From Bacteroidales bacterium (lineage in GTDB: Bacteria > Bacteroidota > Bacteroidia > Bacteroidales > UBA932): 64,000 bases of DNA. Shown here piece after piece: positions 4,365 through 61,929 of this stretch. How positions within the stretch are numbered: position 1 is the stretch's first letter; the number at the start of each line of letters is the position of its first letter. The stretch is taken from NCBI GenBank assembly GCA_017437755.1, contig JAFRXI010000018.1, positions 24,325 through 88,324 of the forward strand, given 5' to 3'. Position numbers and translations under genes: made by a program. Under the pieces are notes generated by a model, which ran no database searches, was not told the DNA's origin, and worked only from the letters and a program-made list of their open reading frames with translations.

Positions 4365-4518
4365 GTCCACTCGGTTTTTACTGAAGTCCACTTTTTCTTA
4401 TAGGGGATCCTGAGTGGAATAAACTGATTGTCAGGCAATTATCCATCTTCGTGGGGTGTGTGGCGTCCACTTTGGCCCAAAAGTACGCTTATTATAATAG
4501 GCGATATGACTACTTTTG
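4365..4518. promoter_or_regulatory. Divergent susR/susC control region with GTCCACT repeats and a -7 box TACTTTTG (4511-4518)
   Basis: GTCCACT at 4365, 4386 and 4465; inverted TCCACT at 4413-4418; TAnnTTTG match. Confidence 0.5.
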
Positions 4519-4571
4519 ACTTGTCCGGAACCCCGGAACTACACAGTAATAACCAATCTCTTCAAGGGAAC

Positions 4572-7541
4572 ATGAAAAAAATTCTCGTTTTTGCACTGAT
4601 GCTGCTGGGAACGGTTGCGTTTGCCCAGAAGCAAACCGTTACGGGAAGGATAGTGGATGCCTCGGGAAACCCCGTCCCCGGCCTTACGGTCCTGGAGCAG
4701 GGTACTTCCAACGGTACCACCACCGATGCGGACGGAAAGTATTCCATCTCCGTGTCGCCTTCTTCGGTCCTTTCCTTCGAGGCCCTCGGCTACACTACCG
4801 TAACCGAGACCGTGGGCTCGAGGAATGTAATTGATGTAACCGTTTCAGAAGAGGCCCTCGAGCTGGACGCTGTTGTGGCCATCGGTTACGGTTCGGTCCG
4901 GAAGAAGGACCTTACCACCGCTGTTTCAATCGTTTCCACCGACGATGCGGTTCACCGCCCCATTACCGAGGCTTCGGGTCTCATCCAGGGCAAGGTGGCC
5001 GGTGTCCAGGTCCAGCAGACCAGCGGTCTTCCCGGAGCCGGCATGACGGTCCGTGTCCGCGGAAACAGCTCCATAGCTTCGTCCAACGACCCTCTCTACG
5101 TGGTTGACGGCGTTCCCGTGGGCGAAGGCTCCTATGCGATCGCTTACCTGTCGCCCAATGACATCGAGACGATGCAGATCCTCAAGGACGCCTCCTCTGC
5201 GGCCATTTACGGTTCACGTGCCGCCAACGGCGTGGTGCTCATCACCACCAAGCAGGGCGCAAAGAACCAGGCTCCCCACATCAACTTCACCAGCTACGTG
5301 GGTGTTTCCAACGTCACCCACAAGTTCAACGTGCTCAACACCGAGGAGTACCGCGAATATGCCGGAGAGTTCAACATCAACATCCCCGAAGACCTGACCG
5401 ACCAGACCGACTGGTTCGATTATACCTACAGGACCGGGATCACCCAGAACTACCAGATTGGCGTAAGCGGCGGCGGTGACAGGTTCCGCTATTACCTCGG
5501 CGGCGGCTACAACGACGAAAAGGGTATTATCAAGGTAGCGTTCGCACGCAGGTACAATGTGCGGGCGAGCTTTGACGTGGATATGTACAAATGGCTCACC
5601 GTGGGTGCCAACGTGGCTTATTCGCACTATAAGAACAACGGCATCATCTCCGGTCAGGGCGCCAACCGCGCCGGTGTGGTCCTTTCGGTGATCAGTACCC
5701 CTACCTATGCCCTTATCAAGGACACCGAGAACCCCGAGCAGTATTATTACAATTTCTACGGCCTTGGAGGACTTTCCTCTCCCGCCGAGAACATGGCCCG
5801 CAGCGAGTTCAATTACGATACCACCGACCGTGCCATCCTCACCGGCTACGCCCAGATCAACTTCACAAAGAAGTTCAACTTCAAGAGCACGGTCACCATG
5901 GACCGCCGCTGGGTCCACGGCTGGAGCTACCTCGATCCGGTGCAGACCCAGTACGGCCGCACCCAGCACGGCGAGGCCACCGATACCCGCAGCGACGACC
6001 GCAGGATGATCTACGACAACATCTTCTCCTACAAGGACACCTTTGCCGGGAAGCACAACCTGGACGTGATGGCCGGAACCTCCGCAACCACTTCCGACTG
6101 GCAGCAGCTCTCCGGTTCCCGCAGCAACTTCAATACCGAGTACTACGACAAGATCTGGGGACTCAGCGGCGGCAACAAGGGCGGTCTCCGCGGACAGGAT
6201 ACCGGATGGGCCCAGTGGGCGATAATGTCGTTCCTCGGCCGCGTGGCATACAACTACGACAGCAAGTACTACCTGACGGTGAATTTCCGTGCCGACGGTT
6301 CCTCCAAGCTCGCCCCCGGCCACAAGTGGGGCTTCTTCCCCTCGGCTTCCGCTGCATGGCGGCTCACCGGCGAGGAATGGCTCAAGGACGTGAGCTGGCT
6401 CAACGACCTCAAACTCCGCGCGGGATGGGGCCAGCAGGGCAACCAGAGCGGCCTAGGGGACTATGCCTGGGTACAGACATACAACACCAGCTATTACGAC
6501 TGGACCAAGGACGAATACGCCTATTCCACCCCCGCAATCGGTGACAAGTCCAACTTCGGGAACAAATACCTGACATGGGAGACCACCACCCAGGCCAACG
6601 TGGGTATCGACGCCAGCTTCTTCGGGAGCAGGCTCACCCTCACCCTCGACGGATACTACAAGTACACCAGCAACATGCTGATGAACGTAAGCCTGCCCTC
6701 TCCCTATCCCAGCATCTTCCGCAACGAGGGCGAGATGTCCAACTGGGGCATCGAGGCTGCCCTGAGCAGCGTCAACATCGCCAAGAACGGATTCGAGTGG
6801 ACCACGGACTTCAACATCTCCATGAACCGCAACCGTCTTGAGAAGCTCGACCTCCAGCAGGTATACTATTATGTGAGCCCCGAAATCATCGGCGAGAACA
6901 TCGTCAGGATGACTCCCGGCCAGCCTCTCTCCATGTTCTGGGGCTACAAGGCCCAGGGTGTGGATCCCGAGACCGGCCTCCTCATGTATGAGGACCTCAA
7001 CGGCGACGGCGACATCACCGACGTTGACAAGCAGTATATCGGCAACGCCAACCCCAAGTTCATCTTCGGCCTTACCAACAACTTCAAATACAAGGGGATC
7101 GGCCTGAGCGTGCTCATGACCGGATCGGTGGGCAACGATGTCTTCAATGTGTCCAAAATCAACATGATGGGCATGCAGAACGGGTACAACCAGCTTCATG
7201 ACGTGGTGCGCCGCTGGAGGATCCCCGGGCAGATAACCGACGTCCCCAAGTCGGGGGAACCCTGGAACGCCAAGGCTTCCACCTACTGGGTCGAGAATGG
7301 TTCTTATCTGAAAATCAAGAACATAACCCTCTCGTATGACGTTGAGGCCAGGTGGCTCAAGAAGATCAACGTGGCCCGTATCCAGCCTTACGTCACCCTG
7401 TCCAACTTCATCACCTTTACGAAGTATTCGGGCTTCGACCCTGAAATGAGCCAGTATTCGGCCGCCACCAACACCGGCATCGACTACGGCACCTATCCCA
7501 ACGTGAGGACCGCGATCTTCGGAATCAACATCGATTTCTAA
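4572..7541 (+). CDS. susC: SusC/RagA TonB-dependent transporter (PUL1)
   Basis: Signal peptide MKKILVF, N-terminal carboxypeptidase-regulatory-like domain, LDAVVAIGYG, PLYVVDG, ILKDASSAAIYGSRAANGVVLITTK, C-terminal Phe. Confidence 0.97.
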   Translation: MKKILVFALMLLGTVAFAQKQTVTGRIVDASGNPVPGLTVLEQGTSNGTTTDADGKYSISVSPSSVLSFEALGYTTVTETVGSRNVIDVTVSEEALELDAVVAIGYGSVRKKDLTTAVSIVSTDDAVHRPITEASGLIQGKVAGVQVQQTSGLPGAGMTVRVRGNSSIASSNDPLYVVDGVPVGEGSYAIAYLSPNDIETMQILKDASSAAIYGSRAANGVVLITTKQGAKNQAPHINFTSYVGVSNVTHKFNVLNTEEYREYAGEFNINIPEDLTDQTDWFDYTYRTGITQNYQIGVSGGGDRFRYYLGGGYNDEKGIIKVAFARRYNVRASFDVDMYKWLTVGANVAYSHYKNNGIISGQGANRAGVVLSVISTPTYALIKDTENPEQYYYNFYGLGGLSSPAENMARSEFNYDTTDRAILTGYAQINFTKKFNFKSTVTMDRRWVHGWSYLDPVQTQYGRTQHGEATDTRSDDRRMIYDNIFSYKDTFAGKHNLDVMAGTSATTSDWQQLSGSRSNFNTEYYDKIWGLSGGNKGGLRGQDTGWAQWAIMSFLGRVAYNYDSKYYLTVNFRADGSSKLAPGHKWGFFPSASAAWRLTGEEWLKDVSWLNDLKLRAGWGQQGNQSGLGDYAWVQTYNTSYYDWTKDEYAYSTPAIGDKSNFGNKYLTWETTTQANVGIDASFFGSRLTLTLDGYYKYTSNMLMNVSLPSPYPSIFRNEGEMSNWGIEAALSSVNIAKNGFEWTTDFNISMNRNRLEKLDLQQVYYYVSPEIIGENIVRMTPGQPLSMFWGYKAQGVDPETGLLMYEDLNGDGDITDVDKQYIGNANPKFIFGLTNNFKYKGIGLSVLMTGSVGNDVFNVSKINMMGMQNGYNQLHDVVRRWRIPGQITDVPKSGEPWNAKASTYWVENGSYLKIKNITLSYDVEARWLKKINVARIQPYVTLSNFITFTKYSGFDPEMSQYSAATNTGIDYGTYPNVRTAIFGINIDF

Positions 7542-7554
7542 CATGGAAGGAATT

Positions 7555-9075
7555 ATGAAAAAGATAGTCAACATATTGGCCGCCGTGGCCGCCGTGACCG
7601 GCCTCGCCGCCTGCGACCTCGACCTGTATTCTCCCACTTCCTTCAACAAGGGGAACGTGGAGACCACCGGCGACAATGAAGAAAGCGCTTCCCAGTACAA
7701 GAGCCGCACCGATATGGAGAACCTTCGCAACTCGCTGTACAACAGCTGGGTGAAAGATATCCAGGAGATGGGCCTGGAGGACTGGCTGGTTTATTCCGAA
7801 ACCCGCGCCGACAATGCTTACTGCGGTACCACCACCGCATCCATCATGGCCATCGAGGCCAACAAGCAGGACGGCTCCAACACCAATATCACGCGCGACT
7901 GGAATTGGTATCAGAAGCAGGTCTCGAACGCAAACCAGATCATCTGCAACATCGACCGCATCGCGGAGGAGGATACTTCCCTTTCCGCATCCGAGCGCGA
8001 CCAGTGGAAGGCCGAGGCTCTCATCTGGAGGTCCTTCTGCTTCTTCCGCCTGACCCAGCTCTGGGGAGACGCCCCCATGGTGCTCGAGATACCCCCGACC
8101 ATTACCGTGGAGAACGTATCGGAGGTGTATTCGCTCTATTATCCTGACCGTACGCCCATGAACGACGTATATGCCCAGCTTGTGAAAGACCTCACATGGG
8201 CGGTCCAGTACGCACCCAAGAGCAATCCCAACAACAAGATGCTCATGTCCGACGCCTTTGCATACGGCCTGCTCGCACGCATCTACGCCGAGAAGCCCAT
8301 CCGCGACTGGGGCAAGGTTATCGAGTACTGCAACACCATCGAGGGCATGAACTTCTCGCTGGAACCGTCCTATGGCACCCTCTGGAGCTATGAGGAAGGT
8401 GAAGCCGGCGATGCCTACCGCAATTCCCCGGAGAGCATCTTCGAGGTGCAGTGGACTTCCAAGAGCAGCGGCAACTGGGTGTTCATGATGTATCACCGCA
8501 ATGCCTACAATCCCAACGACAGCTATTCCTGGGCCAAGTGGCAGACCCCTTCGCGCGACCTCATCGAGGCCTATGAGAAGGAAGGCGACACCGAGCGAAT
8601 GAACGCGTCCATCATTTGGGACAGCTGCTCCTGGAGCAATTACTATTCTTCAGACAACTACGCCTTCATGCACAAGGTCCCCACAAACGTTTCCAGCATA
8701 CTTGTCATGAGGCTTGCGGAAATCTACCTGCTTCATGCAGAGGCCTGTGCATGCACTTCCGACTTCGAGGGCGTGAAGACCTATGTGAACAAGGTCCGCA
8801 CCCGTGCGAAGCTCTCGCCGATTCCGGCTCCTGCAAGCGTGGACGAGGCTATCGACGTTGTCCTTCACGAGCGCAGGCTGGAACTCTCCTTCGAGGGCTT
8901 CCGCTTCTTCGACCTCGCCCGTCACGACAGGATAATCGACGTGCATAATTCCATGAACGAAAAGGACAGCTACTGGCAGCAGCGCAAGCCCCTCTTCGAG
9001 AGCCGCATCTTCCTGCCTGTCCCTACCGAGGCCCTGGATGCCAATCCTAATATGTCCCAAAACGCAGGTTATTGA
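7555..9075 (+). CDS. susD: SusD/RagB glycan-binding lipoprotein (PUL1)
   Basis: Lipobox LAAC; MRLAEIYLLHAEA, ERRLELSFEGFRFFDL and QNAGY end; directly follows susC. Confidence 0.96.
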   Translation: MKKIVNILAAVAAVTGLAACDLDLYSPTSFNKGNVETTGDNEESASQYKSRTDMENLRNSLYNSWVKDIQEMGLEDWLVYSETRADNAYCGTTTASIMAIEANKQDGSNTNITRDWNWYQKQVSNANQIICNIDRIAEEDTSLSASERDQWKAEALIWRSFCFFRLTQLWGDAPMVLEIPPTITVENVSEVYSLYYPDRTPMNDVYAQLVKDLTWAVQYAPKSNPNNKMLMSDAFAYGLLARIYAEKPIRDWGKVIEYCNTIEGMNFSLEPSYGTLWSYEEGEAGDAYRNSPESIFEVQWTSKSSGNWVFMMYHRNAYNPNDSYSWAKWQTPSRDLIEAYEKEGDTERMNASIIWDSCSWSNYYSSDNYAFMHKVPTNVSSILVMRLAEIYLLHAEACACTSDFEGVKTYVNKVRTRAKLSPIPAPASVDEAIDVVLHERRLELSFEGFRFFDLARHDRIIDVHNSMNEKDSYWQQRKPLFESRIFLPVPTEALDANPNMSQNAGY

Positions 9076-9077
9076 TT

Positions 9078-10589
9078 ATGAACAGGTTATCTTTACTTGC
9101 GACTATAGGCCTGCTGTCCTTCTGCTCCTGCTCCTGCGGGGGTGGGGAGGATATGCCGGAGCAGACCCCCGGAAAGGATACCGATCCGGTGGAGACCGTA
9201 GAGGACGGCGCCGCTGCCTGGACAACCACCTTCGACAAGTCCAGGGCATTCCAGAAGAGCACCATCGCCTTCGGGAAGGCCGCCACCATGTCGCCGTACG
9301 CGGTCCGTTTCACTGACACTGCGTACCAGAGCGTGGACGGATTCGGCCTTGCGGTGACTCAGGCTTCGTGCTACGTACTCCTGAAGATGACCCAGCAGGA
9401 CCGTACCAAACTCCTCAAGGAGATGTTCTCTCCCACGGAGGGAGCAGGCAGCAGCCTCATCCGCGTATGCATCGGCGGATCGGACTTCTCAATGTCGGAA
9501 TATACCTGGTGCGACACCGAGGGAATCTCCAATTTCAAGATTCACGACAGTGAGTATCAGTATCTTTTCCCCATCCTCGACGAGATCTACGCCATCAATC
9601 CCGACGTGCAGATCATAGGTTCTCCCTGGAGCTGTCCCCGCTGGATGAAAATGGATGTGGCCGGCAATGGAAACGCCTTCAACAGCTGGACTTCCGGCCG
9701 CCTGAATCCCAAGTATTACGCGGATTATGCCCAGTATTTCGTGGGCTGGATCCAGGCCATGGAGAAGCGCGGCTACAAGGTCCTGGCCGTTACCCTGCAG
9801 AACGAGCCCCTTAACCACGGCAATTCCATGTCGCTCTACATGCCATGGGAAGACCAGAGGGATTTTGTCAAGGTTGTCGGTCCGGCATTCAAGTCCAATG
9901 GCATCAAGGCCAAGATCCTGCTGTTCGACCATAACTACAATTACGACAACCAGGCGGGCCAGAAGGAGTATCCGCTCCAGATATACAAGGACTCCGAGGC
10001 GTCGAAGTATGCCGCCGGAAGCGCCTGGCACAACTACGGCGGGTCGGTGTCGGAGCTGGACAAGATCCACGATTCCGCCCCCGACAAGGATATTTACTTT
10101 ACCGAAGCATCCATCGGCCAGTGGAATTACGGCCAGCCCGGCAGGGGATTCGCCTCGCTTTTCGAGGAGGATTTCCGCGACATCTTCCTTGGCACCCTGA
10201 GCCGTTACGGCAAGGGCGTAACCCTTTGGAATATGGCTTTGGACGACGAGGGAAAACCCTACCGTCCGGGAGGATGCCCCACCTGTTACGGTGCCATATC
10301 CATCAACCACAACGGGTGGACCTATGCAGGTGCCGACCGCAAATCCCACTGGTATGACGTCCTTCACGCCTCGGTGGCGGTTAAGCCCGGAGCGGTCCGC
10401 ATCGGAACCGACGGATTCACAAAGAACGGGATGACCTACCTGGCGTTCCGCAACACCGACGGTTCCTATGGCGTGCTCATCCTGAATTCAAATTCGGATG
10501 ACCAGCAGCTGGTATTTGCGACCGACGCGCATTCCGTTCCGGTGAATGTGCCCGGCAAGTCAGTAGTATCGTTAAAATGGAAAGATTAA
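9078..10589 (+). CDS. GH30 lipoprotein, probably subfamily 3 endo-beta-1,6-glucanase
   Basis: IRVCIGGSDFS, SPWSCPRWMK, TLQNEP (acid/base), FTEASIG (nucleophile). Gene order matches the BT3309-BT3313 type locus. Confidence 0.88.
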   Translation: MNRLSLLATIGLLSFCSCSCGGGEDMPEQTPGKDTDPVETVEDGAAAWTTTFDKSRAFQKSTIAFGKAATMSPYAVRFTDTAYQSVDGFGLAVTQASCYVLLKMTQQDRTKLLKEMFSPTEGAGSSLIRVCIGGSDFSMSEYTWCDTEGISNFKIHDSEYQYLFPILDEIYAINPDVQIIGSPWSCPRWMKMDVAGNGNAFNSWTSGRLNPKYYADYAQYFVGWIQAMEKRGYKVLAVTLQNEPLNHGNSMSLYMPWEDQRDFVKVVGPAFKSNGIKAKILLFDHNYNYDNQAGQKEYPLQIYKDSEASKYAAGSAWHNYGGSVSELDKIHDSAPDKDIYFTEASIGQWNYGQPGRGFASLFEEDFRDIFLGTLSRYGKGVTLWNMALDDEGKPYRPGGCPTCYGAISINHNGWTYAGADRKSHWYDVLHASVAVKPGAVRIGTDGFTKNGMTYLAFRNTDGSYGVLILNSNSDDQQLVFATDAHSVPVNVPGKSVVSLKWKD

Positions 10590-10591
10590 AT

Positions 10592-12589
10592 ATGAAAAAG
10601 TTATTTGTTATCCTTCTCGCAGGATCTCTGGCCGTGGTTTCATGCCGGGAGAAAGAGCCCCCCTTCGTTACAACCGACAAGGGTCCGGTCCAGACCATCA
10701 CCTGTGACGCATCGGCCCTGATGGGCGACCGGTTCAACTTCTCGGTCGACCTCAAGGACCAGATAGCCCTGTCCACCCTCAAGGTGGAACTCCTCTTCGA
10801 CGAGTCCGTGGTGGCCTCCAAGACCATCCGTACCAAGGAGGAGGGGACCTACGAGGATTACCTGGAAGTTCCTTTCTACAAGAACGTTCCGGACGGCGTG
10901 GCTACCGCCAGGTTCACCTCGCAGAACATCCAGTTCGGCCTTACCGTCGAGGACAAGGACGTAAGGGTCACCCGTCCCGACTTCGCCTACCTTACCCTCA
11001 AGGCCGCCGACGGCAGTGAGTACAGGATGGAGAAGAAGGAAAACTACGTCTATGCCGTGACTGGGAATTTCCCCGCAGCGGTTGACGCCTTCATCGAAAC
11101 CGCACCATACGGAACGCAGAACCGTACCCTTACCTTCGGGTATGACGCTACCGGCGTGGCCCTGGACGGCGGCAAGGTGATCCCGTTCTCAAACGGCGTG
11201 GCCGGCAATTACGAGATATCCTTCAACACCAAGACCTGGGAGGCGTCCCCGTTCATCAAACTCGAAGTCAACGGCGTTGAAACCGTAATGGCCGAGAAGG
11301 ACGTCTATACCGCCGTGGTCAATGTCAAGAAAGGCGATGTGATAACCATTACCGGTTACGAGCCCGGCTTTGACGACTTCACCTTCGATCCCGACTTCAT
11401 CACCGAAGACAGGAAGTTCGCCGCCCTCGAAGGCCTGTACAAGTTCTCCATCCGCATGGCGGACAAGTGGGTGATAGTTGACAGGATGGCTTCCAGCAGC
11501 GCCCTGGCCACCCTCGGCACCGACGGACACGGCGCCGTATGGATCATCGGCGACAGTTGCTTCGGCAAGCCGGCCATCTTCACCGCCAGCTGGAACACCA
11601 GCTTTGCCGTGTGCATGGCCGAGGTTGAGGACAAGGTCTACCAGGCCACCCTGGTGGGCGGCTTCCAGATCAAGACCGACAACGTAAACATCAAGTTCTT
11701 CCACCAGAAGGGCTGGGGCGGCGAATTCAAGAAGGAGAATTACGCTTCCATCGACAACGCCATCCTCGACATCCCGTCCGACGACGGAAACATCCGTCTT
11801 GCCGAGGGTGTGAAGCTCGAACTGGGCGGAATCTACCGCCTGGTCCTCGACCTCACCGGTGGCAACAGCGCCGCCAAGTTCTCCTGCACCAAGGTAGGAC
11901 AGCAGGAAGTGGAGCTTCCCAAGATGACCGTCAACGGAGTCGAGCTTGAAGGCGGCCCCACCGATTTCTCGGCCGAGGTCGACCTGACCCAGGGTTCCAC
12001 AGTGGCGCTCAGCAACGTCGACGGTCTGGCCTCTTACTGGATCGATCCCGACTTCTGCTCGGCGGCAGGGAAGTTCCTTGCTGTGAGCGGCAAATACAAG
12101 GTGATGCTGAATACCGCCGACAAGACCATCATGGCACGCAGGGTGACCGCATCAGGCGGAGCTCCCAACCTTGAGGAAGGCGGCCTGTACATCCAGGGCT
12201 GGGGAGTTTCCGGGTTCAAGATGACCTCGCAGGTGGGCTGGCCCGGCGCGGGCGGCTACCAGCTGGCCCAGGTTGCTCCCGGCAAGTTCCAGATGACCGG
12301 CAAGGCTGTGGCTGAAACCAGCGCTGAAATCGGCGGCAAGTTCCGTTACGACTATATTTCCGCCAAGTATTTCTTCCAGGACAACTGGGGCGGAGAAGCC
12401 TCCAAGGGTGTGACCATCAGCGGAAATGCCGCAGAACTTCTGAAGCAGGGCAGCGACGCCAATTTCGGCCTCGCATCCAACCTTGAGGAAGGCGCGACCT
12501 ACCGTCTCACCGTGGATTTCTCGGAATGCACAATCTCCGGAAACAGCATAACCGCTGGAAAGGAAACAGTACAGTTTGATAAATTATGA
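10592..12589 (+). CDS. Surface glycan-binding lipoprotein (DUF5125/DUF5121-like, BT3313-like)
   Basis: Lipobox VVSC; LSTLKVELLF, IKFFHQKGWGGEF and WIDPDF motifs; position after GH30. Confidence 0.8.
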   Translation: MKKLFVILLAGSLAVVSCREKEPPFVTTDKGPVQTITCDASALMGDRFNFSVDLKDQIALSTLKVELLFDESVVASKTIRTKEEGTYEDYLEVPFYKNVPDGVATARFTSQNIQFGLTVEDKDVRVTRPDFAYLTLKAADGSEYRMEKKENYVYAVTGNFPAAVDAFIETAPYGTQNRTLTFGYDATGVALDGGKVIPFSNGVAGNYEISFNTKTWEASPFIKLEVNGVETVMAEKDVYTAVVNVKKGDVITITGYEPGFDDFTFDPDFITEDRKFAALEGLYKFSIRMADKWVIVDRMASSSALATLGTDGHGAVWIIGDSCFGKPAIFTASWNTSFAVCMAEVEDKVYQATLVGGFQIKTDNVNIKFFHQKGWGGEFKKENYASIDNAILDIPSDDGNIRLAEGVKLELGGIYRLVLDLTGGNSAAKFSCTKVGQQEVELPKMTVNGVELEGGPTDFSAEVDLTQGSTVALSNVDGLASYWIDPDFCSAAGKFLAVSGKYKVMLNTADKTIMARRVTASGGAPNLEEGGLYIQGWGVSGFKMTSQVGWPGAGGYQLAQVAPGKFQMTGKAVAETSAEIGGKFRYDYISAKYFFQDNWGGEASKGVTISGNAAELLKQGSDANFGLASNLEEGATYRLTVDFSECTISGNSITAGKETVQFDKL

Positions 12590-15500
12590 GAACCAGACTC
12601 CTTTTGACACTGGGTACCCTGGCAGTCCTCTTGGGATGTGCCAGGGAAACCCTTGAGAATGAGAGGCTTGTCCCCCAGGGCAACACCACCCTGAGGGCAA
12701 CAGTCTCCGAGGCGGTCCAGAGCAGGACGGCCTTTACCGACGCAGGCGCTTTCTCCTGGACAGCGGCCGACGCCATCTCGGTATACACCACCAAGGGGGC
12801 TTTCCGGAGGTTCACCCTCACGGGTGGCGACGGGACGGCCAGCGGCGTATTCACCGGCGACTTTACCGACGAGACCTCTTCCACCCTGGCCGTGTATCCG
12901 GCGTCGGAAAGCCATTCCCTCAGCGGGAATGCCCTTACCCTTCATCTTGACGAAAGCTATACATGGTCGGAGGACCTGAATTCCCATGCCCCCATGATGG
13001 CGGTCATCGCCTCCGATGGGGCGGAAAGCTTCTCGTTCAAGCATCTGGGAGGCATCCTGAAGGTTAGTTTCTCCAACGTGCCCGCAACGGCGACGAAGTT
13101 CGTCTTCACCGCCGAGGGCCGCAAGGTCAGCGGCGATTTCTCCGTTGCCGACATCACAGAGGAAAACGCAGTGATAGCAACGGCCGCCTCGGAAGAAGGC
13201 AACACCGTTACCATCAACATCCCCAAGGCTTCGGCGGAGATGGCGTTCTATGTCCCGCTCCCTACCGGTACCTATCCCGGTTTCAGCGTGGAACTGTTTG
13301 ACGCCGCCGGCAACCCGCTGGTCATGAAGACCCGTTATTCCGAGATAACCATTGCCCGGAAGGACCTGGTACTCATGAAGTTGATTGCAGGGGCTGCGAC
13401 CAACGGCAAGAAGTTGCTCTTTGACTTCGGCCACAAGAACGACGGAAACTGCCCTGCAACCACCTCTCCCGATGCCAACGGAAACTACTGGAACAACATC
13501 GAGAAGGCTTCGTCCGGCAAGAACGGGAACGGCCTCTCCTTCGACCTGGCCTATTCCGACAACTCCGCCACCCCTTATAAGCTGACCCTCCTCACCGATT
13601 TCTGGAGCAACGGAAAGGCAAACGGCGGACTTGCCGTGATTTCCGACGCCACGGCAGCGGCTCTCGGCGACCTTGCGATAGTGACCGCGACCCAGGACTA
13701 TTTCTTCTCGCAGGGCGCAGCCGTATCGTGCACCTTCGAGCTGTCCGGCCTCAACCCCGCCAAGGGCTACAAGTTCCACCTGTTCGGAAGCCGTGCCTCC
13801 ACAGTCGCGGACCAGAAACGCGAGGCAAAGTACGCAATCGCGGGCGCCAATGCCTTTGAGGGCCTGCTCTGCATCACCGGACCCGGTGAAAAGGGAACCC
13901 AGAACACCACCGACGTGCTGGAGTCGGATATCATCTATCCCAAGCCCGACGGAACCATCAAGCTGACGCTTTCCAAGGGAACCAATTCCCAGGCCTCCGG
14001 CACAAACGAGTATTACCAGCTCAACTGCATGAAGGTGGAGGAATTCGAAGGCGGACAGATCCCCGTGACTGTGAACTACACAGCCCTCGAGGTAACTTCC
14101 GCCGAAGAGACCTTCCTGATGCACAGGGTGGAGGGCGACGCCAATATCTTCGAGGGTGTCTCCTCCTTCTCTTCGGGCGAGGTTCCCATGAAGGGAATCA
14201 CCGACAAGGGCGTTGAGGTTCCCCTCACCGCCACATCCACGGTCGACGGAGTCGCTTACCTCGTGGCCGACCTGGACAAGGCCGAATACACCTTCACCGC
14301 CGTAGATGCAATCCTCGCCCAGGGTCCCGCGATCCTCGGCTGGAGCAATTCCAACGGTGCCACCCTCGATTACAAGGGAGCCGGCGTGTTCTCGGGAACC
14401 GCCCTGGAGTTCGGCGGCAACGGCGCACCCAAGTACGACCGTTCGCAGTCGTTCAACTTTGTGAAGAAGGGTGCATGGAGTCCGACCTTCAAGAGGGTGA
14501 CCGGGACCAGGCGCGACATCGAGGCCAGCACCTACGGCACGACCCAGGACATCAACCTGAATCCGGGGGTGTACGACGTGTCGCTCGACCTCAGGAACTT
14601 CAAGTACGAGATGGCGCACCACGGCGACCTGGATCCCGACCGTATCACGGTGATGGGCTCCTCGGTCCCTTACGGCCAGGGTGCGACCAACAAGCACGGA
14701 TACATCTGGCTGTATGAGGACGTCCTCAAGGCCCGCACCGGCAACAGCTGGTACATCTCCAACCTCTCCGTTTCCGGAAACAACACCACGACCCTCGGCG
14801 AGAGGTTCGACGAGGAGACCGTGGACGGTGGCAAATACCTCATCGTGGCCCTGTCGCTGGGCAACGAGGGACTTGCCTCGGCAACCACATCCTCCGCTAT
14901 GGAAACGCTTTACAATCAGTGGGAAAACCGGGTCATGCTGGATTCCGACAGCTTTGTGAAGACGGCCCGCGCGGAAGGGAAGCAGGTGGTGGTCACGGGC
15001 AACTATGCCAACAACGGCTACAATTCCGACCACTATTCCTGGATACGCCAGATCAACCTCGACATACAGCAGTGGGACGTTCCGTCGGTCAACCTGATGG
15101 GTGCAATCGACGACGGTACCGGCAAATGGGCCGCAGGGTATTACGACGATGCCCTCCATCCCAACGATGCCGGCCATCTTGAAATGGCCTGTGCCGTGGT
15201 TCCGTCGCTGTTTGACGCCCTCAAGGCCGGAAAAGCCCAGCCAGTGAGGAGCGCCTCCGGCAGCTATACCCTCTCCAACCGCCAGGTTATCGCCGTGGAA
15301 CCCGAAGGCAGGATCCATCCGTTTACTATTTCCTTCGGCGTAAAGACCACCGCGGCCGGAAGCATCCTTACCTTCTTCAACGGTGAGGAGGCCAGGACGG
15401 TCTCCGTATCCGCGTCCGGTACCCTTACCTATGGAACGGTTACCGGCACCAGGGCGGTGAACGACGGGGCATGGCACCAGGTCACCCTGACGCATTTCTA

Positions 15501-16476
15501 TGCCCGCGGCGAAACCCTCCTGTACGTGGACGGCCTGCTTCAGGGCAGCGTTTCGGAGAAGGTCCTTACCACGGCGTTCTACGTGGGATATGCCGGAGCG
15601 GCAACCCAGGCTTCCTGGAGGGAGATTTTCTTCTGGCGCAGCGGTATGAACGCCGACGAGGTGTCGGCAATTTCTTACGGAAAGATGCTTAAGTCCTCGC
15701 TCGAGTTCTACGCACCGCTGGACGGCGCCCTTACCAACCTTGCACAGAGCACGAACACCCTGGACATCGCCGACGGCGCATCCCTCGTCCCGGCCGAGGA
15801 TACCACTCCCCGCCTCAACGGCGAGGCCCTCACCGAGGCAGCGGGAGTCGCCTCCATCGGCAAGATATCCCTGACCCAGGGGGCGACCCTCACCCTCAGC
15901 AATCTTGGCCAGGTGAGCGACTACTGGTGGGATCCGGACTACTTTGAGGTGAACGGTTCAACCGTGACCTTCCTTGCAGTCAGCGGCGACTACGACGTCG
16001 CCTTCCACCCCGGTTACGTGACCGCCGGCAGGGTAACCTCCGACGGAAACAAGCCAAACATCGAGAACGGCGGCCTCTACCTTCTGGGCTGGGGCGTAGC
16101 CAACCCGATGATGAACGGCGGACAGTTCGGCTGGACCCTTTCCAATGCCTACCGCATAGCCCAGGTGGCGGCCAACGTCTACCAGTTCTCCGGCTATGCC
16201 GTAGCCGAGACCAGCGACCTCATAGGCGGGCGTTTCCGTACCGACTATACCGACGGCAAATACTTTTATGCCTATAATTCCTGGGACGGCCAGGGCCCGG
16301 TGACCTTCACCGAGAGGGCTGCGGAACTGCTGGTGCAAAGCAGCGGGAACAACTTCAATTACGCCAAGAACCTCGAGGAGGGGGCATTCTACGTGCTCAG
16401 GATCGATTTCTCCGGCTGCACGATATCCGGGACAACCGTAACTGGCACCCCTACCGTTGATTTCTATAAAAAGTAG
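12586..16476 (+). CDS. Multidomain lipoprotein: fimbrillin (Mfa-like) domain, beta-sandwich, SGNH/GDSL esterase, LamG-like domain, and a copy of the upstream SGBP C-terminal domain
   Basis: Lipobox LLGC; SRTAF..SWTAADAISV, AVYP, FKHLGGILKV (fimbrillin-like); VMGSSVPYG/SGNN/LGNEG/DALHPN (SGNH); DGAWHQVTLT..LYVDG (LamG). C-terminus resembles the protein encoded at 11918-12586. Confidence 0.8.
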   Translation: MRTRLLLTLGTLAVLLGCARETLENERLVPQGNTTLRATVSEAVQSRTAFTDAGAFSWTAADAISVYTTKGAFRRFTLTGGDGTASGVFTGDFTDETSSTLAVYPASESHSLSGNALTLHLDESYTWSEDLNSHAPMMAVIASDGAESFSFKHLGGILKVSFSNVPATATKFVFTAEGRKVSGDFSVADITEENAVIATAASEEGNTVTINIPKASAEMAFYVPLPTGTYPGFSVELFDAAGNPLVMKTRYSEITIARKDLVLMKLIAGAATNGKKLLFDFGHKNDGNCPATTSPDANGNYWNNIEKASSGKNGNGLSFDLAYSDNSATPYKLTLLTDFWSNGKANGGLAVISDATAAALGDLAIVTATQDYFFSQGAAVSCTFELSGLNPAKGYKFHLFGSRASTVADQKREAKYAIAGANAFEGLLCITGPGEKGTQNTTDVLESDIIYPKPDGTIKLTLSKGTNSQASGTNEYYQLNCMKVEEFEGGQIPVTVNYTALEVTSAEETFLMHRVEGDANIFEGVSSFSSGEVPMKGITDKGVEVPLTATSTVDGVAYLVADLDKAEYTFTAVDAILAQGPAILGWSNSNGATLDYKGAGVFSGTALEFGGNGAPKYDRSQSFNFVKKGAWSPTFKRVTGTRRDIEASTYGTTQDINLNPGVYDVSLDLRNFKYEMAHHGDLDPDRITVMGSSVPYGQGATNKHGYIWLYEDVLKARTGNSWYISNLSVSGNNTTTLGERFDEETVDGGKYLIVALSLGNEGLASATTSSAMETLYNQWENRVMLDSDSFVKTARAEGKQVVVTGNYANNGYNSDHYSWIRQINLDIQQWDVPSVNLMGAIDDGTGKWAAGYYDDALHPNDAGHLEMACAVVPSLFDALKAGKAQPVRSASGSYTLSNRQVIAVEPEGRIHPFTISFGVKTTAAGSILTFFNGEEARTVSVSASGTLTYGTVTGTRAVNDGAWHQVTLTHFYARGETLLYVDGLLQGSVSEKVLTTAFYVGYAGAATQASWREIFFWRSGMNADEVSAISYGKMLKSSLEFYAPLDGALTNLAQSTNTLDIADGASLVPAEDTTPRLNGEALTEAAGVASIGKISLTQGATLTLSNLGQVSDYWWDPDYFEVNGSTVTFLAVSGDYDVAFHPGYVTAGRVTSDGNKPNIENGGLYLLGWGVANPMMNGGQFGWTLSNAYRIAQVAANVYQFSGYAVAETSDLIGGRFRTDYTDGKYFYAYNSWDGQGPVTFTERAAELLVQSSGNNFNYAKNLEEGAFYVLRIDFSGCTISGTTVTGTPTVDFYKK

Positions 16477-16481
16477 GAGCC

Positions 16482-16604
16482 ATGGAAAAGAAAATATATA
16501 TCAATCCGGATGTCCGGACCGTGGATTACCGCCTGGAGTATCCAGTGATGTCGCCTGTTTCCAGCGACGGAGAAAACGCCAATCCTTACGAGGAGGATTG
16601 GTAG
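16482..16604 (+). CDS. Unannotated 40-aa YxxP micro-protein MEKKIYINPDVRTVDYRLEYPVMSPVSSDGENANPYEEDW
   Basis: Manual translation. Fills the gap with 5-nt spacers on both sides and shares a pattern with 58444-58578. Confidence 0.8.
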   Translation: MEKKIYINPDVRTVDYRLEYPVMSPVSSDGENANPYEEDW

Positions 16605-16609
16605 GACCG

Positions 16610-35630: not shown

Positions 35631-35642
35631 ATAGAGAGAGTT

Positions 35643-51986: not shown

Positions 51987-54900
51987 ATGATTCCTTTAAA
52001 ACAACCCGGGTTACTGGTCGCTGTCCTTGCTGGACTGCTGGGAACGGTCTGTGCTTCGGCTGCTCCCGCTGTAGGCAGCGTCCCTGCACAGGAGGCACAG
52101 GAGCAGGTAACCCACAAGGTGACGGGTAACGTTGTCGATTCCAAGGGCGAGCCTCTCGTGGGCGCCGCCATCGTCATGAAGGGGAACGACAAGGTCCATG
52201 CCATCACCGACCTTGATGGTAATTACGCCATCGATGTCCCTGAGGCAAACGCCGTCCTCGTATTCTCATTCATCGGTTTTACGACAACCGAAGAACGCGT
52301 TTCCGGCCGCAAGATCCTCAATGTCCAGCTTTCGGAGGAGAGCACCGAACTTGGCGATGCCGTGGTCGTGGCTTATGGTCGTCAGAAGAGGGAATCGGTG
52401 GTTGCGTCAATCACCACCATTGAACCCACGCAACTGAAGGTTTCCACTAGCCGTTCCATCTCCAATAATCTGGCAGGAACCGTTGCCGGTGTCCTGGCAA
52501 TCCAGAGGTCCGGTGAGCCGGGATACGACAACTCGACATTCTGGATCCGTGGTATCAGTACCTTCCAGGGTGCCGGTGGCGACCCTCTCGTCCTCATAGA
52601 CGGTATCGAGCGCGACATCAACAATATCGACGTGGAGGAAATCGAATCGTTCTCCGTTCTCAAGGATGCTGCCGCGAGTGCGGTGTATGGCGTGCGCGGT
52701 GCGAACGGCGTGATCCTCATCAATACCAAAAGAGGGCAGGTCGGCAAGCCGAGGGTAACAATCAAGGCGGAGATTGCCGGGACGGCTCCGGTGAAACTTC
52801 CCCAATACATCGGGGCGGCCGATTTCATGCAGCTGATCGACGATACCCTCGTTGATACGGGAGCATCTCCTATGTATACCCAGAACATCGCCCGTACACG
52901 CGCCAACTACGATCCTGACCTTTATCCGGACGTGAACTGGATAAAGGCCGTATCCAAGGATTATGCTTCCAACCAGCGTGTGACCGCGGAGTTCTCGGGC
53001 GGTAATGATGTCCTCCGGTACTCTTTTGTCGCTGCCGCATTCAACGAGCAGGGTATCCTTACCCGCGACCCCAACAAGGAATGGGATCCTTCCATCAAGC
53101 TCCAGAGGTACAACGTCCGTTCCAATGTGGACCTGAAAATCACCAAGACAACCAACCTCCGTTTCAATATCGGCGGTTACCTCCAGGACAGGAATTCCAC
53201 CACCCAGAGCGTGAGCGAAATCTTCACCAGGGCGTTCCGTCATGTTCCTTTCTCTTTCCCCGTCCAGTATTCCACCGGGCAGATTGCGGGTAACGAGGAA
53301 TCGAACGTGTGGGCGATGGCAACCCAGATGGGTTATCAGAGAACCAGCCAGCATAAGATCGAGACACTGTTCAGCCTGGACCAGGACCTCTCGTTCATCA
53401 CCCCGGGCCTCAGGGCCAGCGCAACTTTTTCGTTTGACCGCCTGTCTTCCGGAACAGTTTCCAGAAGCACGGCTCCGGATATGTACAACCCTGCCTCCAA
53501 CCGTAACGAGGAAGGAATGCTGATGATCACCAAGAAGTCAAACGGATCAAATACCCTCGGCCACTCCACCAGCGGTTCATTCGGTACCAAGAGCCTCTAT
53601 CTTGAGGCAAACCTCAACTACAACCGTACAATCGCCAAGAAGCACGCCCTTCAGGGACTCCTCCTCTTCAACCGGCGCAACTACGACAACGGATCCAAGC
53701 TTCCTTACAGGAACCAGGGTCTTGCCGGCCGTGCGGCATATACCTATGACAGCCGTTATGTGGCCGAATTCAACTTCGGCTACAACGGAAGCGAGAACTT
53801 CGCCAAGGGTCACAGGTATGGTTTCTTCCCGTCAGTAGCCCTTGGCTGGGTGGTTACGGAGGAACCGTTCATGCGTCCGGTAAAGGAGTATGTAAACAAG
53901 CTGAAGTTCAGGGCATCTTATGGTCAGACCGGTAATGCCACGCTTGACGGCCGCCGTTTCGCATACCTTTCCACCATTACGGACGACTGGGATACCCTCA
54001 GAGAGTACAGATGGGGCGAGGAGACCTCCTACAACCGGAACGGTATGGCGGAAGGTGAATTCGCCGTGGCGGACCTGACCTGGGAGAAGGTGAACAAGGC
54101 CAACCTTGGTTTTGAGCTTGGACTTTTCAAGGGCGCCGTGGATCTTCAGGTGGATGTGTTCGACGAAAGGAGGAACAACATCTTCATGGAACGCGAGTCC
54201 ATCCCTTCCACCGCCGGTTTCATCAAGATGCCTTGGCAGAACTACGGCAAGGTGAAGAACCAGGGCGCCGAGATCAGCCTAAAGATAAACAAACAATTCG
54301 CTAACGGACTCTTCCTCAGTGCCATAGGTACTTTCACCTACGCCCATAACACCATCGTGGAGATGGACGAGGCGGCTTCCGTGGTGGGAACCAACCGCGC
54401 AAAGACCGGACATCCGGTCAATCAGCTTTTCGGATATATCGATGACGGGCTCTATACCTACGACGACTTTGTTGATGTGGAGAACGGAATCCTCCGCTCG
54501 GACCTCCCCGAGGTTACTCTCGTGAGCAAGGTGCGTCCCGGAGACATCAAGTACAAGGACATCGGCGGCGTGGACGGCAAGCCGGACGGCAAGATCGACG
54601 TATATGACAAGACGGCGATTGGCGGAACGGTGGATCCCGAACTCGTCTATGGCTTCGGCCTCAACCTTTCTTTCAAAGGCTTCGACCTGGGCGTGCTCTT
54701 CTCCGGTGTTGGCAGGACGTGGAACATCCTTTCGGGAAACGTGATCCCCGTATCGAACAAGGGTGTTTACTACAATGTTTTCACGAACTACCAGGATCGC
54801 TGGACCGTGGACAACCCTTCCCAGGACGTGTTCTATCCGCGTTTGGATTACGGTACGAATGCAAACAACAACCAGGCTTCCACGTGGTGGCTCAAGGATA

Positions 54901-55118
54901 TGAGTTTCCTTCGTCTCAAGAACGTCGAACTGGGATACTCTTTTCCCAAGAAGATTACGGACAAGATCCGCATGTCAGGCATAAGGGTATACCTGAGGGG
55001 AACCAACCTCCTCACTTTCTCTTCGTTCAAGCTGTGGGATCCCGAACTCAAATCCACGACCGGTGCGGCATATCCGGCCATGAAGAGCGTTTCTGCCGGT
55101 CTTGAATTCAAATTCTAA
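51987..55118 (+). CDS. susC: SusC/RagA TonB-dependent transporter (PUL3)
   Basis: LGDAVVVAYG, SGEPGYD, VLKDAAASAVYGVRGANGVILINTK, C-terminal Phe. Confidence 0.97.
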   Translation: MIPLKQPGLLVAVLAGLLGTVCASAAPAVGSVPAQEAQEQVTHKVTGNVVDSKGEPLVGAAIVMKGNDKVHAITDLDGNYAIDVPEANAVLVFSFIGFTTTEERVSGRKILNVQLSEESTELGDAVVVAYGRQKRESVVASITTIEPTQLKVSTSRSISNNLAGTVAGVLAIQRSGEPGYDNSTFWIRGISTFQGAGGDPLVLIDGIERDINNIDVEEIESFSVLKDAAASAVYGVRGANGVILINTKRGQVGKPRVTIKAEIAGTAPVKLPQYIGAADFMQLIDDTLVDTGASPMYTQNIARTRANYDPDLYPDVNWIKAVSKDYASNQRVTAEFSGGNDVLRYSFVAAAFNEQGILTRDPNKEWDPSIKLQRYNVRSNVDLKITKTTNLRFNIGGYLQDRNSTTQSVSEIFTRAFRHVPFSFPVQYSTGQIAGNEESNVWAMATQMGYQRTSQHKIETLFSLDQDLSFITPGLRASATFSFDRLSSGTVSRSTAPDMYNPASNRNEEGMLMITKKSNGSNTLGHSTSGSFGTKSLYLEANLNYNRTIAKKHALQGLLLFNRRNYDNGSKLPYRNQGLAGRAAYTYDSRYVAEFNFGYNGSENFAKGHRYGFFPSVALGWVVTEEPFMRPVKEYVNKLKFRASYGQTGNATLDGRRFAYLSTITDDWDTLREYRWGEETSYNRNGMAEGEFAVADLTWEKVNKANLGFELGLFKGAVDLQVDVFDERRNNIFMERESIPSTAGFIKMPWQNYGKVKNQGAEISLKINKQFANGLFLSAIGTFTYAHNTIVEMDEAASVVGTNRAKTGHPVNQLFGYIDDGLYTYDDFVDVENGILRSDLPEVTLVSKVRPGDIKYKDIGGVDGKPDGKIDVYDKTAIGGTVDPELVYGFGLNLSFKGFDLGVLFSGVGRTWNILSGNVIPVSNKGVYYNVFTNYQDRWTVDNPSQDVFYPRLDYGTNANNNQASTWWLKDMSFLRLKNVELGYSFPKKITDKIRMSGIRVYLRGTNLLTFSSFKLWDPELKSTTGAAYPAMKSVSAGLEFKF

Positions 55119-55129
55119 TCCTTGTCGAA

Positions 55130-57082: not shown

Positions 57083-58420
57083 ATGAAAAAGACATATATC
57101 ATACTATTATCCCTTCTCTGTATCGCCTCCTGCCAGAGGCCGGTCAACTACCTTGAGCAGGCGCAGAACTTTTTTAAGGCGGAAGAGAAAATGCAGCTCT
57201 CGGCATCTTCCACCAAGATAGATCTCGACAGGGATAAACCCGACGACATCGCCCTTACCTTTGACTGGACAAGCGCCCGGGAGATGCCGGACGACTACAT
57301 TCCTACCTATATCACCAAGATCGATATAGCCGGGAACAACTTCAACACCTGTGTGAGGACGGTCGAAGACGACGGAACCTTCTCCAAGAGCTTCACCAAC
57401 GCCCAGCTCCAGAGCTACATCCTTGACAAGTGGGGCAAGTCCTATGTGCGCCCGGTCACCGTTCAGTTCGGCGTCGTTTGCAAGTGGGACGGCGGCGATA
57501 AATACGTCATGCCCGAGGTCCGTACCCTCAATGTCGAGATCAGGCCGTTCAGGCCCCTCACCTTCGATGTAGACAAACTCTATGTCTCCGGCGATGCGGT
57601 AATGGGCGCCACCCGTATCCTTATGAAGCAGACTCCGGAGAACGAATTCCAGTATGCCGCCCATGTCGCCCTTAAAAAGGGTCTCCTTACCCTTCCCGTG
57701 GTTTACGACGGGATGACGACCTACATAGCTCCTGCCGACCTCGACGGTTCAACCATCATGGATGCGGAGGATGAGGCGGTTACGATGAGGACGGATGCGG
57801 CGGGCTGGACCATTCCGGAAGAAGGGACGTATCGTATAGTCGTCAATATCCAGAACAAGACGGTACGTATCTACAGCCCGGCAACTGACCTCAAGCCCAA
57901 GACCTTCCAGGGTCACTTTGGGCCGGTCGGCACTTATAACGAGGATGTTGAGTTTACGCTCAATCCGGAAGGAAACGTCAACGGAACCCCGTGGCTGTTC
58001 GGCTTCAAGGGCGACAATATGGACGGAAGCGGATGGCTTACCAAGGAAGTCAGGTTTGAATTCAGCGAGGCCGATCCCCAGCTTCTGGTATACAGCGGCG
58101 CCGATGTCAAGGGAGACAAGTGCATCGCCCTTATCAACTGGCTCACATCGGACGGGAAGCCATATACCAACTATGACTCGGCCTTCTATATCGTGCCCAG
58201 GAAGAGTGCGACGGGGACCTATCAGGTAAACAAGAATACGTGGTACGACATTGCCTACGGTTTCCTCCGCGATCCGAACCTCATGGTTGACGGTGTGCCT
58301 ATCGGAGCTGATCTCCGTGCGATCAAGTTCCTGTTCAGAAACGACCAGAACACTTCCACGCCGGTGAACTTCATCATGATCGATTTCCGCAACGACAGGA
58401 TATATTTTGACAAGAAATAA
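57083..58420 (+). CDS. SusE-domain surface glycan-binding lipoprotein
   Basis: Lipobox IASC; ALTFDWT, KSFTNAQLQ, LYVSGDA, WTIPEEGTYRIVVN. Confidence 0.78.
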   Translation: MKKTYIILLSLLCIASCQRPVNYLEQAQNFFKAEEKMQLSASSTKIDLDRDKPDDIALTFDWTSAREMPDDYIPTYITKIDIAGNNFNTCVRTVEDDGTFSKSFTNAQLQSYILDKWGKSYVRPVTVQFGVVCKWDGGDKYVMPEVRTLNVEIRPFRPLTFDVDKLYVSGDAVMGATRILMKQTPENEFQYAAHVALKKGLLTLPVVYDGMTTYIAPADLDGSTIMDAEDEAVTMRTDAAGWTIPEEGTYRIVVNIQNKTVRIYSPATDLKPKTFQGHFGPVGTYNEDVEFTLNPEGNVNGTPWLFGFKGDNMDGSGWLTKEVRFEFSEADPQLLVYSGADVKGDKCIALINWLTSDGKPYTNYDSAFYIVPRKSATGTYQVNKNTWYDIAYGFLRDPNLMVDGVPIGADLRAIKFLFRNDQNTSTPVNFIMIDFRNDRIYFDKK

Positions 58421-61921: not shown

Positions 61922-61929
61922 ATTTCAAA

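Follow-up and report, generated by a model that had tools for sequence, protein, structure and literature searches.

The window considered here is a 64,000-nucleotide stretch of a Bacteroidales genome (GenBank assembly GCA_017437755.1, contig JAFRXI010000018.1, positions 24,325 to 88,324). Two of its polysaccharide utilisation loci (PULs), PUL1 and PUL3, each encode a surface glycan-binding protein (SGBP1 and SGBP3), a large pilin-like lipoprotein (FIM1 and FIM3) and a small peptide with a YxxP motif (peptides 1 and 3). Peptides of this kind are paired with pilin-like genes throughout the genome and, judged by their sequences, have two parts, a YxxP leader and an acidic core. The reading preferred here, with a probability of about 60%, is that the core, processed in the manner of ribosomally made peptides that are modified after translation (RiPPs), acts as the lasting donor strand of tip pilins that have no stalk. 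The original prediction, made from the sequence of the window, contained neither the RiPP-type leader nor the corresponding machinery; it described the three genes as one dedicated system that grafts the glycan specificity of a PUL onto a pilus tip.

The peptide family was collected from the genome carrying the window (G000, 1959 genes) by a six-frame scan and two profile rounds, YxxP being used for selection. The 37 peptides found include 36 that are located directly upstream of members of one family of pilin-like lipoproteins, a family that makes up 64 of the 1959 genes (3%). The enrichment of the peptides next to fimbrillin genes, proposed as a check by the original prediction, is therefore evident. 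With leave-one-out profiles, 34 of the 36 peptide-coupled pilins are recovered at E < 1e-7; the remaining pair have E-values of 0.008 and 0.018. Peptide 1 is the sole member of the 37 located downstream of its pilin. Its orthologs remain downstream of FIM1 in loci L042 and L043; the gene order in L042 is FIM1–peptide–peptide–pilin, and L043 has three peptides for three pilins, one-to-one. The small open reading frame (ORF) is conserved, as had been supposed: a peptide is present at all ten FIM3 ortholog loci and at 16 of 23 more distant pilin loci. Only 15 of the 37 peptide-linked pilins are within 10 kb of a SusC gene, the background being 28.5% of genes. The unit consists of the peptide and the pilin, genome-wide, and is not a three-gene module specific to PULs. 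A basic residue at the presumed cleavage site was found in 29 of 31 parsed peptide-coupled pilins versus 12 of 22 others (P 0.002; 5 and 6 unparsed, respectively). Members of the family occur in cultured Porphyromonas pasteri and Dysgonomonas sp. 511, and the peptides are annotated as hypothetical proteins only, or are unnamed. Loci L068, L139, L144, L147, L148 and L152–L154 have YxxP peptides standing alone or before non-pilin secreted proteins, a second use of the leader.

The peptides have a fixed register counted from the Tyr: Arg/Glu at +6 (31/37 peptides), a hydrophobic residue at +10 (35/37), Glu at +13 (26/37), hydrophobic residues at +16 (36/37) and +17 (33/37), and Ser at +19 (19/37) or within +18 to +21 (34/37). 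After these positions come a variable linker and then an acidic tail, with an aromatic residue within the last five positions in 31 of 37 peptides. The core has a median length of 21 residues (range 16–30). The YxxP motif noted earlier as common to both peptides of the window is present, with a Glu 13–14 residues past the Tyr. Nonsynonymous divergence is lower than synonymous in nine of ten peptide ortholog pairs; in the closest pair, peptide 3 and its L001 ortholog, all nine differences are in the leader and the core is identical.

FIM1 and FIM3 both have the lipidated Cys18 of a lipoprotein signal. The pilin module of FIM3 was modelled with a predicted local distance difference test score (pLDDT) of 83 from a 150-row alignment and compared with 48,161 chains. 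The first 22 rows were all Bacteroidales pilin-type structures, the best being 4K4K (Z 13.5, rmsd 4.6, 231 aligned residues), and the first unrelated row had Z 5.5; Foldseek agrees. The FIM1 pilin model has a pLDDT of 80, with the first 28 residues unresolved and the anchor strand poorly modelled. Its top nine Foldseek rows are Bacteroidales pilin-type (best E 1e-6) and include the same top structures as for FIM3, and the FIM1 profile matches the FIM3 family profile at 99.7%. The models and structure searches bear out the type V pilin fold that had been assumed for both N-termini. A hidden Markov model search with Mfa_like_1 (PF13149), which had been suggested for the same purpose, gave no match to FIM1 or FIM3, so the pilin assignment of the two proteins rests on structure. 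The PF13149 cut-off is passed by three peptide-coupled paralogs (C41:130194, C45:46136 and C4:5944) and by the pilin of genome G409. Searches of Pfam, NCBIfam and PDB sequences yielded no family for either pilin module or peptide, and an ESM Atlas search yielded unnamed clusters only. One peptide-coupled pilin-like gene (C4:5525-7287) is split across two frames (170 and 431 aa), owing to a frameshift or an assembly error.

The basic residues expected at the pilin cleavage position are present in both sequences, as R47/T48 in FIM1 and K42/T43 in FIM3; the FIM3 site is within a low-confidence loop (22–28 of the model) after strand 13–20, and the FIM1 site aligns there. The pilin module ends near residue 300 and continues directly into passenger domains, with no C-terminal donor strand of its own. 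According to extracts from PMC13655056 and PMC12632263, tip pilins are likewise without a donor strand of their own. The modelled FIM1 and FIM3 resemble the type V tip pilins (Mfa4/Mfa5 and FimC-E of Porphyromonas gingivalis; Bacteroides structures 4K4K, 3T2L, 3UFI, 3SY6 and 4EPS) in being lipoproteins with two β-sandwich domains; as far as the same extracts describe them, the likeness extends to the basic site past the anchor strand, the C-terminal passenger and the missing C-terminal donor strand. In the type V pili covered there, it is a stalk, adaptor or anchor pilin that provides the donor strand, with its C-terminus. Unlike these, FIM1 and FIM3 have no stalk gene in their locus, and their predicted donor is a free micropeptide or the tail of a non-pilin lipoprotein; unlike Mfa_like_1 pilins, they do not match PF13149. 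A domain scan of the window revealed no stalk or anchor pilin gene in PUL1 or PUL3; stalk-like Mfa_like_1 pilin genes are few in the genome and are located on other contigs (C69, C25). By the modelled structure, FIM1 and FIM3 can be classed with tip pilins, but they have neither a PF13149 match nor a pilus locus. The genome encodes a C11 clostripain; a search for C25 (gingipain) gave no match, and the search's own control was likewise unrecovered.

The processed FIM3 module (from T43, anchor strand removed) was modelled together with peptide 3, each with its own alignment. The complex scored 0.85 (0.88, 0.81, 0.85), and the best of three controls 0.01 (controls 0.00–0.01). The runs share at least 84% of contacts, with a partner pLDDT of at least 56. 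Of 157 solved complexes, 116 attain the score mark, as do 2 of 215 mismatched pairs; these rates hold roughly with own alignments. The complex of peptide and pilin domain envisaged in the original prediction is thus predicted for the peptide 3/FIM3 pair. Peptide residues 21–44 face strands of both pilin domains (77–87, 151–160 and 255–277), and the listed interface does not include leader residues 1–20; by this prediction, the core is a donor strand lying in a groove across both domains. Its length agrees with what is described for Mfa1 in extracts from PMC13655056, where the donor region has 21 residues (Thr543–Leu563), the same as the median core, and the predicted geometry is that described for Mfa1.

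Core-like tails are also found on lipoproteins encoded before peptide-less pilins. Such tails rank 1, 6 and 8 among 1959 C-termini, and three of 21 of these lipoproteins are in the top 30 (P 0.004), with a weak profile whose top scores are 4–9 bits and which ranks acidic tails of unrelated genes high too. The acidic tails of this type upstream of peptide-less pilins are at C42:21693, C56:57266, C1:115843, C45:35833, C37:88573 and C49:75844. The lipoprotein gene starting at 63500 of the window (C55:87824-88960) encodes about ten PGTD repeats, and its tail ranks 7 of 1959 C-termini. The core-like tail is kept in both orthologs examined (L003 and L006; DUF4886 was found in the latter). The tail and the peptide both read V-G-E in L003, and both read V-E-E in the window. 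This lipoprotein is a candidate lipid-anchored donor strand for FIM3. The basic-site link and the fused core-like tails, two independent sequence observations, point the same way, to a donor strand.

A pathway for processing such precursors is suggested by the linear polyphosphorylated peptides (LPPs) of Bacillota, encoded with the genes lppA-K-B-S-D-N (Popov et al. 2026; PMC13381572). According to extracts from that paper, the LPP leader reads YxxPxVLxHQxIxFETxxS, and a signal peptidase I (SpI)-like peptidase, dependent on a RiPP recognition element (RRE), cuts after the Thr; Ser3 of the core is phosphorylated, the catalytic residues of the peptidase LppS are S29/H68/D93, and the role of LPPs is given as unknown in the Discussion. 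The genome carrying the window has two PqqD/RRE genes, each next to an S24/S26-type peptidase gene and an ATP-binding cassette (ABC) gene, as well as two NTP_transf_5 nucleotidyltransferase genes and one HprK-like kinase gene. All five LPP-type core genes are present: RRE, SpI-like peptidase, HprK-like kinase, nucleotidyltransferase and MsbA-like exporter. The Ser, His and Asp of the peptidase, compared to LppS by motif order and not by alignment, are invariant in five of five alignment rows. Within the 37 leaders, the LPP consensus is kept in YxxP (37/37, the selection criterion), in Glu at +13/+14 (29/37) and in the Ser at +18 to +21; its H, Q, T and exact spacing are not. Since the LPP register puts the cut of peptide 3 after A22, the core (23–44) coincides with the predicted interface.

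As far as the extracts describe LPPs, the likeness includes the YxxP leader with a conserved Glu and following Ser, and the set of a discrete RRE, an SpI-like Ser/His/Asp peptidase, an HprK-like kinase, NTP_transf_5 and an MsbA-like exporter. The differences are that the Bacillota clusters hold one to three precursors whereas this genome has 37, dispersed and each with a pilin-like gene beside it, and that the spacing differs by one residue, with the Ser at core position 5 here. Sequence comparison suggests that the peptides function in the manner of LPP precursors without belonging strictly to the class. Lasso-peptide leaders, whose YxxP is bound by B1/RRE (as mentioned in PMC13381572), have the motif in common with the peptides; unlike lasso systems, the machinery here has an S24/S26-type peptidase. 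No lasso cyclase or B2 cysteine peptidase was present in the clusters examined, and no genome-wide cyclase search was made.

Among 400 genomes of the order, the peptidase is present in 28 of 30 peptide-positive genomes and in 34 of 370 others, a count whose significance is inflated by the relatedness of the genomes; without the ten genomes that seeded the alignment, the figure is 18 of 20. One of the two exceptions, G494 (99% complete), has no match to the peptidase or nucleotidyltransferase, and its peptide-like ORF lacks a Met before YxxP and extends past the expected stop. In G409 and G558 the genes for peptide, pilin and machinery adjoin one another on the same strand, and in G458 a peptide heads the machinery operon, without a pilin. 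By analogy with LPPs, the peptides are likely to be processed by an LPP-type RRE/signal-peptidase pathway encoded elsewhere in the genome.

Several observations were made around the machinery genes. The C63 cluster and the second nucleotidyltransferase gene (C41) adjoin Wza/Wzc-type capsule genes, named from sequence features; some Bacillota LPP genes are likewise described beside capsule loci in the extracts from PMC13381572. Locus L072 (G142:C84) has a YxxP precursor with three cysteines beside S26-type peptidase, radical SAM/SPASM and PqqD genes, and is probably a crosslinking variant of the same leader system. The 20 PqqD loci examined first were mostly unrelated cassettes, 3 of 20 being of the S26 type. 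Another repeated PqqD cassette, in L092–L094 and L096–L106, is unrelated (PqqD, ATP-grasp-like, decarboxylase-like and membrane protein; names guessed).

The following mechanism can be proposed. FIM1 and FIM3 are lipoproteins with a predicted tip-type pilin module followed by passenger domains copied from neighbouring genes. The small gene would encode a two-part precursor, whose YxxP leader is likely removed by the LPP-type pathway, leaving an acidic core of about 21 residues; one common machinery would serve the approximately 37 dispersed precursors. LPP biochemistry suggests that the leader would be bound by the RRE and cut one residue past the conserved Glu, that the core Ser would be phosphorylated and that the core would be exported by the MsbA-like ABC transporter. 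By the combined analogy of LPPs and type V pili, the core would meet the pilin in the periplasm or at the surface. The pilin would be cleaved after Arg/Lys, as in type V pili (a clostripain gene is present). The core, in trans, would displace the lipid-bearing anchor strand and serve as the donor strand of the pilin. The product would be a capped one-subunit pilin, freed of its own lipid anchor and bearing a binding or hydrolase domain of the PUL; a pilin whose donor strand is part of a neighbouring lipoprotein would remain tethered. A bolder extension is that the phosphorylated Ser is coupled by the nucleotidyltransferase to a capsule- or lipopolysaccharide-type glycan, making the micropeptide an adaptor that hangs the tip pilin, together with its binding or enzyme domain derived from the PUL, on surface polysaccharide in place of a protein stalk, off the lipid anchor. 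This is prompted by the position of both nucleotidyltransferase genes next to Wza/Wzc-type genes and is possible, though rather unlikely. If true, it would mean a stalk-less, cellulosome-like display whose heads, about 37 in number, are interchangeable, and it would give LPP-type peptides their first function.

The passengers of FIM1 and FIM3 are related to the neighbouring SGBPs. SGBP1 carries DUF5016, DUF5125 and DUF5121 and SGBP3 a SusE domain, each encoded after a SusC/SusD pair; in domain content and post-SusD position they are like SusE/SusF-like SGBPs, but differ in that their C-terminal module occurs a second time, joined to the end of a pilin module and, in FIM1, accompanied by an SGNH hydrolase. 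Each pilin-like protein does end in a copy of the SGBP of its own PUL, as first reported: FIM1 1093–1295 matches SGBP1 462–664 (50% identity, E 1e-49) and FIM3 311–579 matches SGBP3 167–445 (42%, E 3e-62). The copied domains differ between the PULs, cross pairs not being significant (best E 0.16). The best non-family homolog of the passenger is within 12 kb for 15 of 39 pilins, versus about 0.7% by chance. Such local copies occur in 7 of 23 peptide-linked and 8 of 16 peptide-less pilins, so the copying is independent of the peptide. Independent captures in G351 (75% identity) and G087 (55%), each grouping with the SGBPs of its own clade, agree with the repeated capture implied by the original prediction. 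By sequence comparison, SGBP copying is a recurrent local duplication, with or without the peptide; captured passengers may confer the glycan specificity of the PUL on pilin modules. For both window pairs, the possibility that the copied domain evolves in concert with its own SGBP was considered and rejected. The copies are old, because the L043 FIM1 copy shares 40% identity with the SGBP of its own locus and 56% with that of the window, and because FIM3 orthologs group apart from SGBP3 orthologs in trees made from crude C-terminal cuts (205 and 270 residues) with long branches. The SGBP1 module is present in 67 of 301 genomes of the genus, and a pilin-like gene was found at 5 of 14 related SGBP loci examined.

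Several points weigh against a lasting donor strand. The complex score may be due to a similarity to solved FimA/Mfa1 donor-strand filaments, and the anchor strand had been removed before modelling, which left the groove empty for the peptide; the modelling covers one pair, and its controls include no non-cognate family peptide. The peptides diverge much faster than the pilin (34–50% versus 76–86% identity, in nine of ten ortholog pairs), which is hard to square with a close cognate fit. In G176, the FIM1 ortholog has the basic site yet no adjacent peptide. Of 20 further top peptide loci from across the order, only 8 are followed by a pilin-family gene, so the YxxP leader has other uses. The Glu is one residue nearer than in LPPs in 26 of 37 peptides, and the Ser is at core position 5 rather than 3. 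The machinery of the present genome is unlinked to peptides, with no precursor within the cluster, and 17 of 20 peptidase loci are without a peptide in the stretch examined. The relatedness of the counted genomes, mentioned above, belongs here too.

Some of these points would suit a transient role, in which the peptide is a chaperone or plug of the groove during folding and transit, later replaced by a stalk pilin or a fused tail. The predicted complex and the gene pairing would be the same, fast divergence suits a loose fit, fused core-like tails exist (one within PUL3), and other parts of the genome encode a few stalk-like Mfa_like_1 pilins. Nevertheless, the predicted interface takes in the N-domain groove, which is free only once the anchor strand leaves, and 37 peptide-linked tip-type genes stand against a handful of stalk-like ones, none of which is in PUL1 or PUL3; a transient role is considered unlikely. 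It is somewhat less probable still that the peptides, as LPP-type RiPP precursors, have a separate role, as a signal or matrix component, the pilin adjacency reflecting co-regulation and the complex mere groove-filling by the model. The 12 of 20 further loci without a following pilin-family gene, the peptides that adjoin the machinery in G458, where there is no pilin, and in G142, where a radical SAM gene is present, and the open function of LPPs (extracts from PMC13381572) fit such a role; the pairing of 36 of 37 peptides with one fold family, the one-to-one counts, the basic-site link, the fused tails and control scores of 0.00–0.01 do not.

Very unlikely is an action in cis, whereby translation of the small ORF delivers ribosomes to the downstream lipoprotein gene and the peptide is incidental. 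Shine–Dalgarno (SD)-like sites occur at 56% of 36 coupled pilin starts and, among 556 other lipoproteins, at 17% (the start was chosen imprecisely in some cases), a difference that also counts against the donor-strand reading; the median peptide-to-pilin gap is 12 nt, and a gap of 4 nt separates the end of peptide 1 from the possible GTG start of a DUF1573 lipoprotein. Such an action does not account for the fixed-register amino-acid pattern across 20 positions, the aromatic residue near the end, the lower nonsynonymous divergence or the co-occurrence with the peptidase, and what comes after the peptide 1 orthologs is a second peptide rather than a lipoprotein. The acidic tail was also considered as a by-product of SD-like coding, which was rejected because the tail Glu codons are GAA-rich (0.36 GAG versus 0.55 genome-wide). 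Translational coupling more likely serves a 1:1 output of peptide and pilin. Least credible is the dedicated PUL system of the original prediction, in which SGBP, pilin and peptide graft glycan specificity onto a true pilus tip. Its domain copies are real and recurrent, but copying occurs with or without the peptide, most peptide pairs are not near SusC, 9 of 14 related SGBP loci are without a pilin, FIM1 copies are no closer to their own SGBP than to those of other genomes, and neither PUL has a stalk gene. That the three parts form one dedicated PUL module is not supported.

All six ORFs originally described for the two PULs are present (Table 1). Of their common three-part layout, the parts recur in both PULs; the order does not, being SGBP–FIM–peptide in PUL1 and SGBP–peptide–FIM in PUL3. 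The view of FIM1 as an adhesin holds in part: it is not merely an adhesin, because it also has an SGNH/GDSL hydrolase domain (over the Pfam cut-off) and a LamG-like domain (below the cut-off).

Table 1. Features of the two PULs (window positions) and putative maturation genes elsewhere in the genome (contig positions).
Feature	Position	Strand	Evidence
PUL1 context: SusC, SusD, GH30	4428..10589	+	Pfam domains
SGBP1, SusE/F-position lipoprotein; DUF5016, DUF5125, DUF5121; two DUF5125/5121-type repeats	10592..12589	+	
SGBP1 C-terminal module, residues 462-664, source of copy in FIM1	11975..12583	+	50% identity, E 1e-49
FIM1, 1296 aa lipoprotein: predicted tip-type type V pilin module, unassigned middle, SGNH hydrolase, LamG-like, SGBP copy	12586..16476	+	
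FIM1 predicted pilin module incl. basic site R47/T48	12640..13410	+	Model, Foldseek, profile match to FIM3 family
GDSL/SGNH hydrolase domain of FIM1, residues 690-864	14653..15177	+	PF13472 E 1.5e-11, over cut-off
FIM1 copy of SGBP1 module, residues 1093-1295	15862..16470	+	Sequence comparison
AGGAG, SD-like, overlaps FIM1 stop codon, precedes peptide 1 start	16475..16479	+	Sequence
Peptide 1, 40 aa: YxxP leader and acidic core with terminal Trp	16482..16604	+	
PUL3 context: SusC, SusD	51987..57058	+	Pfam domains
SGBP3, SusE-domain lipoprotein; residues 167-445 are source of FIM3 copy	57083..58420	+	
Peptide 3 predicted leader, residues 1-22 (YxxP ... LEA)	58444..58509	+	Putative cut site from LPP register
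Peptide 3 predicted core (residues 23-44), predicted to act as donor strand; its fifth residue is the conserved Ser	58510..58578	+	
FIM3, 579 aa lipoprotein: predicted tip-type type V pilin module and SGBP3 copy	58592..60331	+	
FIM3 predicted pilin module (residues 19-302), with its anchor strand at 13-20 of the model and K42/T43 in a loop of low confidence (22-28)	58646..59497	+	
FIM3 copy of SGBP3 C-terminal region, residues 311-579	59522..60328	+	42% identity, E 3e-62
378 aa lipoprotein start (PGTD repeats, DUF4886; extends beyond window)	63500..64000	+	Tail resembles peptide 3 core
Machinery C63: peptidase, RRE, nucleotidyltransferase, ABC	C63:13950-22532		
Machinery C39: peptidase, RRE, ABC start			
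HprK-like kinase	C21:90788		Similarity to G409 cluster gene
Second nucleotidyltransferase	C41:174026 (region C41:174026-180537)		

A 296 aa ORF at 16457 (16457-17347), overlapping peptide 1, was considered as a rival frame and rejected; it is probably a DUF1573 lipoprotein gene with a lipoprotein signal and a probable GTG start near 16609, 4 nt past the peptide 1 stop. PUL1, with its GH30 and SGBP, presumably resembles the β-1,6-glucan PUL of Bacteroides thetaiotaomicron. Positions 60344-63498 of the window encode two paralogous lipoproteins (38% identical, DUF4832-type below the cut-off) that recur beside SGBP3-type genes in relatives and are likely glycoside hydrolases. The middle PUL (33153-38786) has tandem SusC-like genes, the first without the usual N-terminal domain, followed by SusD and a BACON/GLUG lipoprotein. 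Related loci with an organism named in the record are all from Bacteroidales, one from sheep rumen. Small shares (no more than 0.15) of the PUL3 stretch are contained in 10 of 13 sequencing runs listed; a 263 nt contig in four runs covers peptide 3 and the FIM3 start with two differences, although contigs cannot show transcription.

A literature search, with subscription papers mostly outside its reach, gave no report in which type V pilins are connected with small YxxP proteins or with a RiPP pathway. The main text of the LPP paper (PMC13381572) does not contain 'Bacteroid', 'pilin' or 'fimbri'; the taxa of its supplementary sequence network may include Bacteroidota. If the preferred reading, a processed core acting as donor strand, is true, it would represent a new means by which sugar-binding and enzyme proteins are completed and put to use without a pilus. 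It would join two open questions, that of LPP-type peptides without a known role (according to extracts from PMC13381572) and that of the many Bacteroidales tip-type pilin genes without an adjacent stalk gene. A free donor strand made as a RiPP would explain both and would make a RiPP a structural part of a protein; it would also show how dozens of glycan-binding and enzyme domains are deployed at or beyond the cell surface.

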